Below, piece after piece: positions 3,266-63,904 of a stretch of 64,000 bases of DNA. The stretch spans positions 93,186,001-93,250,000 of the forward strand of contig JAGIQG010000006.1 of assembly GCA_024679065.1 (NCBI GenBank), read 5' to 3'. This DNA comes from Sphyrna mokarran (lineage: Eukaryota). The translations under genes were made by a program, and so were the position numbers. Numbering within the stretch: position 1 is the stretch's first letter; the number at the start of each line of letters is the position of its first letter. The notes under the pieces were generated by a model. That model was not told the DNA's origin and made no database searches. It saw only the letters and a program-made list of their open reading frames with translations.

Positions 3266-4960
3266 ACCTATCGGTTATTAAACCGTTCTATCACTCCTAC
3301 CCCTCTCTTCCCTTGAGGTGATCTTGTGAAACTTACTACTGTGGTCAATTTTTGTTCTTTGTGTCAAACTTTTTTTTTGTAAATTTTTTTGTGTATCACG
3401 TCCTTAAAACACATTGGGACTTTTACTTGGTTAGTGGTGTTATGTAAATACAATTTGTTGTAGTGATTTTGCATTGTCTCCTACTCCCTTCTTTGCATTT
3501 CTAAGTATTGGTGCTGCAGGGAAGCAGATTGAATTTGGGTTAAGTTGATATTTTTGTCCACATTGTTAATCTGAAAACATATAAAAAATGATTGGAAGGA
3601 TTTCAACGAGGTTTGGTGCACAATATGGGTAAGAAAGATTTGATGGATTTTTGCTAAGATTTTTAAAATTTCCATTAATGGAAAGATTCAACAAATTTAC
3701 TTTTTTTAAGGATGTTGCGAGTTTTATTTAGAATGTTGTTTATTATCTTAACTTGAAAATGTGAGCAGATTTTTCAGTGCAGGTTGTTGCGTGTGGATTG
3801 GCCTGAAGCCTTCTTAGTGAGATGGAGCTTCTTAATAAAACATTTTCTCACTTTCAACTTTGTAATAACATTGAGTTGACAAAGCATGAGGGAGGTATAT
3901 GCTCAACTGAGTGCCCTCTTTATCTCATTCTTACTGTATTTTCATTCGTTTCAGGAGCTTTGTTACTTTCTCCAAATGAAGTCCTGATTCTTGTCAGTGG
4001 CTAAAAGCAATTTGTTGTTCTCTCCAATCTAATCAGCTAGTGGTTTGCTAAAGAACTCTCGACATTACTAAAAGGCCTGTCTTAACTGTGCATGTGGTAA
4101 AACTAATACATTTTGGAATGAATGATTTCCTATCTTTAATTGAATCAAACAGTATTTTGTGGATTCTGAGCTAACGCAAAAGATTGTGACAATATGTGCA
4201 CTAATAGTTTGGGATGCAAGACCGTGTAGTTTGCTAACATTTTTCAGGCCCATTCAGTGAGTTACAGAACTAATTTTCAGATCAAATATACAAATTGTTT
4301 CACCTGAAGCAAATGAGGAGGGCACTGCCACCACCATGCCTTGTTAACTCAGTGTTATTACAATTATGCAACTTTTCCTCTAGGCTTTCCCCTGCCTTTA
4401 ACTACAAAGCTTGAAAAAAAATCTTGACATTTAGAAATTCCATCTCACTGAGGTGTCTTCAGGCCAATCCACATCCTGCAAGCTGCTAAGAAAATTACGC
4501 TCGCACTTAAATTTCATTAACAAGCAACATTCCAAAACAATCAACAACATTCTGACCAAAACAACCCCCATTATTTTTAAAAGTCTGTTTGCTCTCTTCC
4601 TCATTTTTATACAGCCTTTAAAAAACAAAATATGCATCCATGTCTTTTTCAAAAGCTAATTGGTTCCTTATGCCACACCCCGTGTACAAAGTTTCATTGA
4701 AATTTAGCCATTAGTTTTTGAGATCTATAGTTTACAGACAAATTAACAAAGAGGAGCATTATCATTGTCCACCTTCAATGGCAGAGGTAAAAAACATTTT
4801 GGCCGCGGGGCACCTTTTAATTGAATTAACAAACTGGCCTAACGTAAAATCAGATTAATGAATAATAAATTTAAGGAAACAAGCAATGCAGATGGATTCC
4901 AGCATTGTCCATCAACAGCAAATGTGCAGGCCACAAGTCAATGCTGTTCAGTTTTTGTTT

Positions 4961-6450: not shown

Positions 6451-6539
6451 AAACGAGTTTAGCAAAAGGGATAGCCTGGAGTAAAGCAAGAAAATTAAAA
6501 TAACCAGATCCCAACAAGGAAAGAAGGATTTTCATTGAA

Positions 6540-6673
6540 GAGGAAGACCACCTTTTACAAATTCCAATCCCTATTCTCTGTCACAATCAATGTGTGAATA
6601 ACTAAAATCTCCTAAATGTGTTTTGTTATTCTGATTCATTTCCCTGCTCCATATACAGTTTTTGCATTTCATT
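6540..6673 (-). repeat. Left arm of an exact 134-bp inverted duplication
   Basis: Reverse complement matches 7974-8107 with no mismatch seen by eye. Confidence 0.95.
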
Positions 6674-6807
6674 GCCTTGAATTTTAAAAATGAAGGAAAA
6701 ATAAATCATGTTAAATATGAACATAAAGTGCATGAATTTCAATCATCAGCATGCCAACTCAACTTGAGAGAATTAGAAATAATTACTGAACAGGTCAATA
6801 TAAGCCC

Positions 6808-7560
6808 AATCATCATCTTGGGGTAGTCCTACAAAGTTTCTTGTGTTCTGAGATGTCTCTGCAGACTCCGTCACGTACAGGGTAGGTGGTGCTTGATAGG
6901 TCAGGATAGATGAGTTGTTTGGAGGTTTGTGTGCTTGCTCCAATATCTCAACTTACTCAATGAAGTCTCTCAATGTGTTCAATGCCTTTCCAAATTAACC
7001 ATATCCATTTTCATTGGTCACAAGTCAGGAGATCACATGGTATTTGACTTCTTGGGTGATTTGAGGACATTCATAGCGTTTCTATTATCTTCCTGGAAAT
7101 GTTCTAGTGATCGTGTTCCAAGGAGAGCAGTTGCTTCAGGAGTCTGGTGTCAACTACAAATGACACGTTACAAATGCAAATTACTGAAGATGCTAGAATC
7201 TGAAACAAAATCAGAAAATGGTGGAAAATCTCAGCAGGTCTGACCAGCACTTTGTTTTGGTAATGATGTGTCCCGTCCAGGGGAGCTTGTTTTAAATGAT
7301 TAATAGCTTGATGCTGGACATATTTGCTTGGGATGCTGCTGTCGGACAGGATTGCTCAACACTGGATTTGGAGGAACTTGCAAAGACACTGCTGGGTAAT
7401 ACACCCCAATATTGAGCTGCAAGTTGTGTATCGAAGTGCCAAGAACACTGCTGCCTGACAAATCATGACCTTTAGTTTCAGGTTTGAGGTGCAGGTTCCC
7501 GAAGACTCTTTCTCGTTGGCATATTGGAGCAAACTGATAACACTTGAAACAGCTGCAAAC
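6808..7560 (-). mobile_element. Decayed RTE-clade LINE 3' portion
   Basis: Minus translations KLKVMICQAAVFLALRY, QQCLCKFLQI, DTRLLKQLL, KWIWLIWKGIEHIE and HLRT match the RTE ORF C-terminus (TKLMVYRAVVL.., HQRCLRKIL, D.RLPKQ.LY, KWR..I.EG, HLRTH). Ends in a short (GAT)n tail. Confidence 0.7.
7165..7252. mobile_element. Short Penelope-associated terminal fragment inserted in the RTE relic
   Basis: TGAAGATGCTAGAATCTGAAACAAAATCAGAAAATGGTGGAAAATCTCAGCAGGTCTG resembles a recalled abundant shark Penelope terminal sequence. Confidence 0.45.
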
Positions 7561-50700: not shown

Positions 50701-50732
50701 CAGGTTAAATGTGGTATTTCAGTGATAGAAAA

Positions 50733-52590
50733 AAGTCTCACAACACCAGATTAAAGTCCAATAGGCTTATTTGGTAGCAAACGCCACTAGCTTTCAGGAC
50801 TCTGCCCCTTCATCAGGAGAGTGGGAAGTTCTGATCACAAACAGGCATACGAAGACACACACTCAGTTTACAGAATACTGATTAGAATTTACAACTAATC
50901 AACTCTTAAAGATGCAGACAATGTGAGTGAAGATGGTATTAAGCATGGGTTAAAGAGATGTGTATTGTCTCCAGACAGGACAATCAGTGAGATGTTGCAA
51001 GTTCAGGCATGTCATGGGGATTACAGATAGTGTGACGTGAACCCAAGATCCCAGTTGAGGCCGTCCTTGTTTGCAGAACTTGACTATCAGTCTCTACTCA
51101 GTGACTCTGCACTGTCATGTGTCATGAAGATGGCCTTGGAGAATGCTTACCCAAAGATCAGAGGCCGAATGCCTTTGACCACTGAAGTGTTCACCAGCAG
51201 GAAGAGAACACTCTTGCCTAGTGATTGTCGAGCGGTGTTCATTTATCCGTTGTCGTAGCGTCTGCATAGTGTCCCCAATGTACCGTGCCTCAGGACATCC
51301 TTTCCTGCAGCGTATCAGGTAAACAACATTGGCCAGGTTGCAAGAGTATGTACTGTGTACCTGGTGGATGGTATTATCAAGTGAGATGGTGGCATCTATG
51401 TCAATGATCCAGCATGTCTTGCAGAAGTTGCTGTGGTAGAGTTGTGTGGTGTTGTGGTCACTGTTCTCCTGAAGGCTGGGTAATTTGCTGCAGACAGTGG
51501 TCTGTTTGAGCTTGTGTGGTTGTTTGAAGGCAAGAAGTGAGTGTATGGGGACAGCCTTGGTGAGATGAAAAAGACAATGAATGTTTTCATCAATGACATG
51601 TTGAAGACTCCAGAGAAGATGTCATTGCTTCTCCACTCTGACGAAGACTGGATGATGAAGGGTACTCTGTTCACCGTGTCCCGTATTTGTCTTCTGAGGA
51701 AGTCAGTGCGGTTTTTCACTGTGGCGCGTTGGAATTGTCTGAGTCCAACGCCACATCCTATTTTCATGAGGGCATCTGGAGGTGTCTGTTGTGATCCTTC
51801 TCATCTGAGCAGATTCCTGTATACGCGGAGGGCTTGTCCGTAGGGGATGGCTTTTTAATGTGTTTAGGGTAAAAGCTGAAGAAATGGAGCATCGTGAAGT
51901 TATCAGTGGACGTGCGGTGCAGTGAGGTCTTAAGGTGACTGTCCTTAAGGAGATGTGTGTGTCCAAGAATACAACTGATTCTGTAGAGGAGTTCATAGTG
52001 AGTCTGATGGTGTCATCTTTGTTTATGTCATCATATAGTTGTTTCAGTGATCACCATGAGTCCAAAGGAAGAAAATATCATCGATATTATACACTAGATA
52101 CCTCGGTTGAAGGTCTTGTGTGGTGAAGAAGTCTTGTTCGAACCTGTGCATGAAGATGTTGGCATATTGAGATGCAAATTTGGTCCCCATGGCTGTTCCG
52201 TGTGTCTGGATGAAGAACTGGTTGTTGAAGGTGAAGACATTGTGATCCAGGATGAAGCAGATGAGTAATAAAATTTTATCTGGAAACTGGCGGTTGTCTG
52301 CGTTAAGTACTGAGGCAGTTGCAGCAATGCCATTGTCGTGGGGGATGCTGGCGTAGAGTGCCAAGACATCTATTATGACGAGGAGTGCTTCTGGTTCAAT
52401 TGCTCCATGTGTGCTGAGTTTCTGTAGGAAGTCCGTAGCGTTGTAACAAAACTTGCGACAATGGGTTTCAGGGTGCCCTCAATGTAGCCGGAGAGGTTCT
52501 CGCACCAGGTCCCGTTGCCCGATATGATGGGACAGCCGGGTGTGTTTGCCTTGTGTATTTTTGGGAGGCAGTAGAGATCTCCAACACAGA
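50733..52590 (-). mobile_element. 5'-truncated Penelope-like retroelement (RT plus GIY-YIG endonuclease plus terminal repeat), disrupted
   Basis: RT: LYCLPKIHKANTPGCPIISG, MDVLALYASIPH, QTHGTAMGTKFASQYANIFM, YNIDDIF. GIY-YIG: NVVYLIRCRKGCPEARYIGDTMQTLRQRINEH (about 51340-51230). Terminal repeat at 50733-50830. Confidence 0.93.
50783..50822 (-). ncRNA. Minimal type I hammerhead ribozyme motif in the Penelope terminal repeat (stem I partly degenerate)
   Basis: Minus strand: cuc-CUGAUGA-A-GGGGC-AGA-GUCCU-GAAA-GC-UA-gug. Both core boxes, a stem II and the palindromic AGCU at stem III are present. Confidence 0.7.
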
Positions 52591-62500: not shown

Positions 62501-62866
62501 AAAGAGAAGTTGAACAAGTGAAACTTGAGTTGAGGATTTTAACCCTTTTTCAGCTCATGATATAATTTGAGTTTCTTAGCATTTGGTTGCACAGTAGAAT
62601 AGTTACTGCAACAGGTTAGCAGCCTGGGAGCTGAAACGTCAGCAAGTGCTATTCTCTGAGCATGAGTATGGAATCAGAATTTCAAAAATTGAAAGTGATC
62701 GTATAATTCCGAATCATCTAATCGCTGTGTGCCTTCAGACAAATCTTTTTTTCATATCATGTGAGCATTATAAATGTATTTTGAGTGGTCATGGTCCTAC
62801 CAGTGGCTTAGATTATTGTTTGGTGATTTCAATGATGCAGACGATGAAGTGCTTCTTTCCGATTTG

Positions 62867-63070
62867 GTAAAGTCTGGCAACACCAATTTTAAATCCAACC
62901 GATTTATTTGATAGTAAATTTGCAAGCTTTCGGCCTTTGTGGCCTTCGTCAGGCGAAGGCCACAAAGGCCGAAAGCTCGCAGATTTACTATCAAATAAAT
63001 CGGTTGGATTTAAAATCGGTGTTGTCAGACTTTACTGAGTTTACCCCGGTCCGACGCCGGCATCTCTACA
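62867..63070. mobile_element. Penelope-derived non-autonomous palindromic insertion (inverted terminal-repeat pair plus tail) with 13-bp TSD
   Basis: 82-bp arms 62867-62948 and 62954-63035 with 4 transition mismatches, a 5-nt loop and a 35-nt tail. TSD TCTTTCYGATTTG at 62854-62866 and 63071-63083. Arms are homologous to the Penelope end at 50733-50817. Confidence 0.88.
62917..62957 (-). ncRNA. Minimal type I hammerhead ribozyme motif
   Basis: Minus strand: uucgc-CUGACGA-A-GGCC-ACAAA-GGCC-GAAA-GC-UU-gcaaa. Confidence 0.7.
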
Positions 63071-63904
63071 TCTTTCTGATTTGAACAATATAGCCTGGAA
63101 TCAGCAGTCAGTCATTGCCATTGACCTCAATGAAAGCTATGCTGAGAGATCTTGTGAGCTTTGTGGCAATAAAGTCACCTTACACTTCACTCCGTTACAT
63201 GGCGAGACTGTTAATGAGGATTTCTAGCCTGGAACTGAAGTGATGTCATCAAACCATCCAAGCAACAAATCAAGTCAAAGAATCCTCACAAATAGTTAAT
63301 CAGGAAATTAAAAACACTAAAAAAATCATTTGAACAAGGTGTAACTACTTTTGAGGTTTGTAACTGAAAAGGGAAAGTATTCGTTCAATTATCCAAGTTC
63401 ACTAATCAGTGGGGTGGTGATATTGATGGGAGTAACCACACTGCAGCTTGGGGCAGAGCAGAGACTGTGATCTCAGAATTTCTGCATTAAGCCAGCTATG
63501 TACTAACTCATAAAGTTACCGTCAGCTTCAGAGAATAAACACAGACAACTCATTTTCAAAAGTCCTCTTAGTCCAATTATTTTCAAATATTGCAATGAAG
63601 TTTCTCATGAGACAAGTTGAAATGGCAGACGTTGGAGATCAGTATGAGATATTTTGTCCAAGAGTCATCCTGATACCTGGAATTTCTATTAAGAAATAAC
63701 TATAAATCATTTGAAATGTCCAGATACAATTTAGATAATGCCTTATAAATTAGGTGTTATTAGTTTTAATAGAGGATTAGGGCAAAAAAATTGAGAAATT
63801 AGAGGATTTTAATGCAAAAACAAAGTTTTGGATTGAGTGAAGAGTTAAAATGTTATATATAAATATAAATATTTATATATAAATGTTATATAAGTGTGAC
63901 AGGC

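Follow-up and report, generated by a model that had tools for sequence, protein, structure and literature searches.

The window, a 64,000-nt stretch of the Sphyrna mokarran genome, carries a 204-nt insert made of two inverted arms of 82 nt, 95% complementary to each other, and an unpaired extension, all enclosed by a short target-site duplication (TSD). The arm-to-arm alignment (E 1e-70) argues against a chance resemblance. The insert is composed of pieces of the pLTR of a Penelope-like element (PLE), and its features are the following:

62854..62866, plus strand: left copy of the TSD, 13 bp, 12/13 identical to 63071-63083, with an empty site in run X23
62867..62953, minus strand (element sense): inverted, tail-less pLTR piece, which includes the 5-nt loop and ends 35 nt before the element end
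62867-62948: left arm of the palindrome, 82 nt
62919..62957, minus strand: candidate minimal type I hammerhead motif, from motif parsing and family pair counts
62945..62957, no strand: junction, a native 4-nt inverted microhomology (TTCG/CGAA) flanking the 5-nt loop
62949-62953: loop, 5 nt, TCAGG on the plus strand
62954..63035, plus strand: sense pLTR piece, 5'-truncated within the hammerhead core and without the CUGA box, matching family copies at 96-97% along the 117 nt of arm and tail, with no core on the plus strand
63036..63070, plus strand: 35-nt unpaired PLE "tail", which stops just ahead of the first ATG of the element ORF; copies L030 and L120 run from tail into ORF
63071..63083, plus strand: right copy of the TSD, 13 bp

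As the tail precedes the first ATG of the ORF in L030 and L120, the right arm has its element sense on the plus strand and the left arm on the minus strand. The left arm corresponds to 87 nt plus a 4-nt overlap, while the right arm and the tail together amount to 117 nt, cut inside the ribozyme core. The arms differ at 4 of their 82 sites, all by transitions, two of which lie at CpG (62885/63017 and 62924/62978). The original prediction of a single insertion with 82-bp arms, four transitions (two of them at CpG), a 35-nt tail and a TSD agrees with these coordinates. The 13-bp TSD that it described is present at 62854-62866 and 63071-63083, but its copies agree at 12 of 13 positions, and the single mismatch, a CpG change, had gone unmentioned. 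The 5-nt loop also has the predicted length; however, ordinary copies (L002-L030) read TTCG, CCTGA, CGAA and then stem II, so the loop is native sequence of the left arm and no new loop was created. Moreover, the plus-strand CAGGCGA, previously taken for an altered mirror core, is the reverse complement of this native loop and not a decayed second core, and the self-complementarity proposed as CCTTCG/CGAAGG shrinks in the native sequence to 4 contiguous nt (TTCG/CGAA), not 6.

The insertion itself can be seen against an empty site. A contig of run X23, from another organism whose flanks are approximately 7% different, runs from 62604-62862 straight into 63081-63600. The skipped stretch, judged from alignment coordinates and not from letters, measures 218 nt, where the insert plus one TSD copy predicts 217. 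Neither the insert nor a second TSD copy is therefore present in the relative, as the check suggested in the original prediction anticipated. X23 was the only informative run in this comparison, since X2, X21, X5, X10 and X17 had little or no flank cover; run X1, which may be the assembly's own sample, supports both insert junctions. The insertion model for the palindrome thus stands.

An origin of the two arms from two different source RNAs was considered and rejected, because the variant pattern of the tail-bearing arm is unique in the genome. The single-site haplotype of this arm is likewise rare (2 among the 100 matches listed), and we read the arm differences as probable private changes. 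The tail has two A-to-G differences from the family, at 63048 and 63053, both making a CpG; their combination is unique in the genome, and one of the two is also present in L045. They may reflect RNA editing of the template or simple mutation.

We then turned to the parent element. The right arm with its tail gave 2422 first-look candidates in the genome, 40 of which were scored and proved 96-100% identical. A 31-nt tail pattern had at least 10,725 genome matches and a subfamily-specific stem II pattern had 1000, with backwards-pattern controls returning 0 matches in each genome pattern search. L120 (3430-7271), from a sister subfamily, is a full-length copy with the order pLTR-ORF-pLTR and a frameshifted ORF, and the end of this copy is 88% identical to the window insert. 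Its 815-bp direct repeats (3430-4244 and 6452-7271) are 96.8% identical, forming the partial tandem by which pLTRs are recognized, and its ORF matches a reverse transcriptase (RT; RVT_1, E 6.3e-10) followed by a C-terminal GIY-YIG endonuclease (E 3.8e-5). Copies L017 and L027, of the same subfamily as the insert, also match RVT_1 and GIY-YIG. Ahead of the GIY-YIG motif, L120 carries CX4CX2C, plus two internal cysteines. A CX2-5CxxC linker motif has been described as a mark of Neptune/Nematis that is missing from Penelope/Poseidon (PMC8557442), and the presence of such a motif in L120 speaks against assignment to Penelope/Poseidon. The parent is thus, on these sequence matches, predicted to be an endonuclease-bearing PLE with a Neptune/Nematis-type linker. 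With an RT and GIY-YIG parent, the tail, the inverted arm and the TSD all found, the Penelope origin proposed earlier is borne out, and it is virtually certain that the locus is a truncated PLE stub.

A few further observations concern the family. In L030 (1461-2360) and L120 (4198-5448) the ORF frame stays open upstream of the first ATG and through the tail, and in L030 it spans the whole hammerhead; the true ORF start may therefore lie further upstream. Within the window, no other close family copy was found besides an older remnant in opposite context 10 kb away (50732-52584, minus strand), which shares 78% identity with L120 along 1.9 kb, has RT and GIY-YIG remnants and stops approximately 37 nt before the tail end, that is, at the inner start site.

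The hammerhead motif was parsed on the minus strand of the insert, where CUGACGA (62952-62946) is followed by one extra A, a 4-bp stem II (62944-62932) and GAAA (62931-62928), and further by a palindromic AGCU with N17 = U at 62924, so that the predicted cut falls after 62924 and the 3' strand of stem I begins at 62923. CUGANGA, GAAA, G10.1-C11.1, a palindromic stem III and NUH are all recognizable on this strand, as expected of a putative hammerhead, and stem I has 4/6 pairs. The same motif parser found no core on the plus strand, in line with the earlier view that only the minus strand has an intact core, and the insert, with one core only, holds no second same-strand motif for a dimeric fold. 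The Rfam scan that had been recommended gave no hammerhead match among 19 hits (E up to 10), those obtained being generic hairpin hits below curated thresholds. In the family, the motif parses in 46 of 88 ends, and stem II pairs 1-3 are kept in 45, 45 and 44 of these 46, counts in which many ends are truncated in the motif and the copies are related, so that the events are not independent. Across loci L064-L093 and L120-L173, stem II occurs in 30 distinct sequences among the 46 motifs with its pairing kept, and stem I pair 2 is G-C or A-U. As a motif of the family, the hammerhead is thus real.

Its activity at this locus is another matter. Minimal motifs of PLEs have been reported to show no cutting as monomers and weak cutting as dimers (PMC4209133). 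In the computed fold, the hairpin reaches -145.4 kcal/mol versus -113.9 kcal/mol with the core forced, a cost of approximately 31 kcal/mol, and the probability of the stem II pairs is around 1e-17. We consider it very likely that the minus-strand motif is inactive here, a prediction that follows from the need for a same-strand partner and from the fact that any transcript would zip into the 82-bp hairpin. A kinetic window would presumably not exist either, as a minus-strand transcript makes the complementary arm first. A hairpin had been suggested to compete with the ribozyme fold; the computed fold points to exclusion rather than competition. Contigs of run X3, whose RNA nature is a guess, fall on the repeat and none on the unique flanks, so that no transcript of the locus was seen among them to back the putative Dicer/ADAR substrate of the original prediction; such contigs cannot show absence.

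The general layout of the locus is already known, as PLE insertions described before combine a 5'-truncated copy in inverted orientation with a tail of 30-40 bp at one of the two ends (PMC3846280, PMC8557442). Its frequency was estimated here from tail matches taken in order along contig C1, giving 84 loci and 88 tail ends; these loci were drawn from approximately the first 90 of the 100 places listed, and were otherwise unselected. An adjacent inverted arm was found in 50 of the 88 tail ends, and in 35 it was bounded by a TSD at its far end. In all 35 TSD-bounded copies the inverted arm ends 24-55 nt before the tail end, all being tail-less. Counting by eye, the two arms end within 12 nt of one another in 20 of these 35 pairs and differ by more than 100 nt in 6, the extreme being 38 versus 1529 nt. 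In the subfamily of the window insert, 56 palindromes have junctions no more than 30 nt from stem II, and 575 palindromes from all subfamilies have junctions near stem III. Exactly one tailed arm was present at 52 of 54 junction loci and two tailed arms at none, and both arms had the same haplotype at 40 of the 41 typable loci (13/54 being untypable), against an expected fraction of 0.545. TSD lengths across the junction loci range from 11 to 16 bp. The locus is hence an ordinary one, one of many hundreds of similar stubs. At one of the loci (L042), a palindromic stub was inserted into an older related element, within the tail end of the latter, and the TSD of the stub consists of that tail sequence.

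The distribution of 5' ends was analyzed in loci L064-L093 and L120-L173, with positions counted from the tail end and truncation points taken from alignment to a 34-copy library, so that they may shift where a subfamily is missing. For tailed arms, the ends per 100 nt were 1.41 at -116..-145, compared with 0.28 at -36..-82 and 0.16 at -251..-500, and for inverted arms the corresponding values were 2.38, 0.13 and 0.23. Overall, ends in the -116..-145 zone are approximately 5-9 times denser per base than in the other two zones. The 5' half of the ribozyme therefore looks like a stopping zone, which possibly marks the transcript start (the RNA 5' end) or a pause of the RT; within the null model, the region's longest microhomology lies in it. 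The earlier proposal that the turn-around lies at the ribozyme, and not at random, is supported by this peak, and its description of a truncation-plus-inversion product fits the 5'-truncated pieces lying head to head inside one TSD. Ribozyme cleavage was considered as the event setting the RNA 5' end and was rejected: ends are denser at -83..-104, yet there is no sharp pile-up at the cut. Among the first 50 of the 575 loci, viewed by eye, no pile-up was seen at the predicted cut (-92), many arms passing it and joining at the stem III palindrome.

The exact junction of the window was found by genome pattern search at 17 loci, and each resolved locus has its own TSD. The loop lies on the tail-less arm at 10 of them, as in the window, and on the tailed arm at 7 (L043, whose tail is mostly deleted, having its polarity and haplotype assigned by eye); haplotypes A and B are divided 5/5 in the first group and 6/1 in the second. 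Two polarities combined with two haplotypes call for at least four origins. Other junction classes likewise occur in both polarities. Among the 17 loci, the short arm ends at -21 to -38 where intact and the tail at +1 to +8, and intact stubs measure 204-223 bp. No non-CpG variant unites the 17 loci, the shared ones being family haplotype markers or scattered pairs. Nevertheless, the junction is over-used: it makes up 13 of the 50 listed nearby junctions versus 2% expected under uniform break pairs (p 2e-11, approximately 13-fold), a count that we prefer over 17/54, as the latter includes 4 loci chosen by their junction pattern. Another 4-nt microhomology only 3 nt away was used at 3 of the 54 loci, versus 17 for the window junction, so microhomology alone does not account for the preference.

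This recurrence bears on whether the insert belongs to a self-propagating non-autonomous family, retrozyme- or MITE-like, in which a master 204-bp palindrome would be transcribed and re-inserted by the PLE enzyme. The 17 distinct insertions and the over-used junction are what such a family would leave, and any tail-bearing copy could in principle be recognized. However, the same junction with different TSDs, which the original prediction had proposed to count, is indeed found but does not discriminate, and on its own is no proof of a family: polarity, haplotype and arm ends are mixed among these very loci, the palindromes near stem II and stem III fall in many junction classes, a head-to-tail array is absent, and the sole core is buried in a hairpin. 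We therefore regard self-propagation as very improbable, and recurrent joining as the reading that is in all likelihood correct, with small clonal bursts inside the 17 being possible, given that 117 nt carry few markers. Even less credible is a later DNA rearrangement, either a deletion between opposite neighbor copies or a replication fold-back, that built the palindrome after insertion. Arms that differ at four sites, two of which also vary among family copies, could be taken in its favor, but the whole unit sits within one TSD, the empty site of the relative contains none of it, the one-TSD layout recurs in 35 of 88 sampled ends, and the variant combination of the tail arm is private (one genome match) and defines no second subfamily.

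Altogether, we interpret the locus as a dead-end, extremely short PLE insertion, in which two element ends lie head to head within one 13-bp TSD (probability approximately 0.8). Given the observed parent family, layout, TSD, empty site in a relative, recurrent junction, single tail per insert and haplotype match of the arms, the following course may be envisaged. The endonuclease would nick both target strands approximately 13 bp apart; one 3' end would prime at the end of the RNA tail and the other some 30-35 nt inside; both cDNAs, copied from one RNA, would preferentially end close to the ribozyme on its 5' side; and the CGAA end of one would anneal to TTCG of the other, with fill-in generating the palindrome. 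Whichever cDNA was extended 9 nt further would carry the loop, which could yield the two polarities. Pairing between target and RNA at priming was considered and rejected, as the overlaps, taken with no formal control, are weak: 38 loci gave a mean of 1.4 nt for the tail end, and 32 loci a mean of 0.75 nt for the end of the short arm.

We favor, by a fair measure, two cDNAs that were copied from a single RNA and paired through their 3' ends. A tail-primed cDNA folding back on itself puts the loop on the tailed arm, and in the window the loop lies on the arm without tail; a simple fold-back of a single cDNA, as originally suggested, thus cannot make this locus. Likewise, a cDNA begun 35 nt inside cannot copy the missing tail, and so either a second cDNA or later staggered trimming is required. 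In addition, the Poseidon protein has been reported to cut and extend both target strands from two start sites whose interval equals the tail, to be a predicted dimer, and not to need ribozyme cleavage (PMC11167929). On the other side, independent strand choice predicts inserts with two tails or none, which are nearly absent, so that the route must postulate a coupling on one RNA. The arm pairs ending within 12 nt of one another are also predicted by fold-back, and arm concordance is equally consistent with one arm having been copied from the other. Moreover, the PLE studied in vitro belongs to the Poseidon clade, and its start site showed no strand difference (PMC11167929), which counts against the extrapolation. 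These points bring in the alternative that a single strand, cDNA or antisense RNA, self-primes at TTCG/CGAA, and that endonuclease or repair trims one hairpin end, of either arm, by 30-35 nt. Self-priming of antisense RNA was proposed by Arkhipova et al. 2013 (PMC3846280), where palindromes at PLE inversion junctions are read in this way, and the tail has been attributed to endonuclease resolution of an intermediate (PMC8557442). The close arm ends and the 40/41 concordance suit this route, and with trimming both polarities become possible; without it, only the loop-on-tailed-arm polarity would arise, opposite to the window and 9 other loci. Arms of 38 and 1529 nt would require loops of more than 1 kb, and two RT start sites now account for the tail (PMC11167929). 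We thus hold self-priming to be doubtful, although it deserves to be kept in view, and retain the two-cDNA route.

There is a slightly better than even chance that the stubs, numbering thousands, are a fossil record of PLE insertion, with a dimeric enzyme making two cDNAs approximately 33 nt apart, one per target strand, annealed at their 3' ends. If so, the one-tail rule (52/54), the 10:7 polarities, the 40/41 arm concordance and the pile-up of ends would represent in vivo evidence against the published self-priming, and the pile-up would show where the RNA begins or where copying pauses at the ribozyme. How PLE inverted repeats form is, according to PMC8557442, an open question. Junction polarity offers a cheap genomic test between self-priming and two cDNAs; the PLE papers covered here gave no count of it. 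The locus itself is of little weight, and the junction counts are modestly useful for the PLE mechanism.

In LINE-1 twin priming, cDNA synthesis on one RNA starts from both strands of the target, and joining by microhomology gives an inversion within one TSD. The proposed PLE route shares with it two-strand priming, the microhomology join and the single TSD; however, the two L1 pieces are copies of separate RNA segments, whereas here the same stretch is copied from starts approximately 35 nt apart, which results in a palindrome. In MITEs, the terminal inverted repeats directly abut the TSD and all copies end alike; the window insert instead has a 35-nt tail beyond one arm, and the 17 loci differ in their ends, polarity and haplotype. 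Animal non-LTR retrozymes, as described in bioRxiv 10.64898/2026.07.22.740005, are likewise non-coding, related to PLE pLTRs and equipped with a type I hammerhead, but they form head-to-tail tandem units with at least two complete same-strand hammerheads, and the window holds one head-to-head unit with one core. With the metazoan PLE hammerheads of Cervera and de la Pena 2014 (PMC4209133), the motif shares the core boxes, an extra base before stem II, G10.1-C11.1 and a loopless palindromic 4-nt stem III. Opposite-strand motif pairs 100-700 bp apart are reported there for PLEs; here the core is present in one arm only, stem I has 4/6 pairs, N17 is U, and the motif lies inside its own antisense hairpin. 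With Poseidon of Anolis carolinensis (Frangieh et al. 2024, PMC11167929), the family would have in common two RT start sites approximately 30-40 nt apart, which set the tail, along with cutting and extension of both target strands, and it shares a hammerhead approximately 110-120 nt upstream of the element end; it differs in its CX4CxxC linker motif, which Penelope/Poseidon are without, and the main text of that paper leaves inverted insertions and junction polarity untreated. Finally, the endonuclease-bearing (EN+) PLE insertions with inverted pLTR and tail (PMC3846280, PMC8557442) share with our locus the head-to-head 5'-truncated copy, the 30-40 bp tail at one end, the single TSD and the palindromic junction, but the pieces in the window measure only 87 and 117 nt and enclose no ORF, and TSDs are 11-16 bp here versus 8-10 bp in rotifer PLEs.
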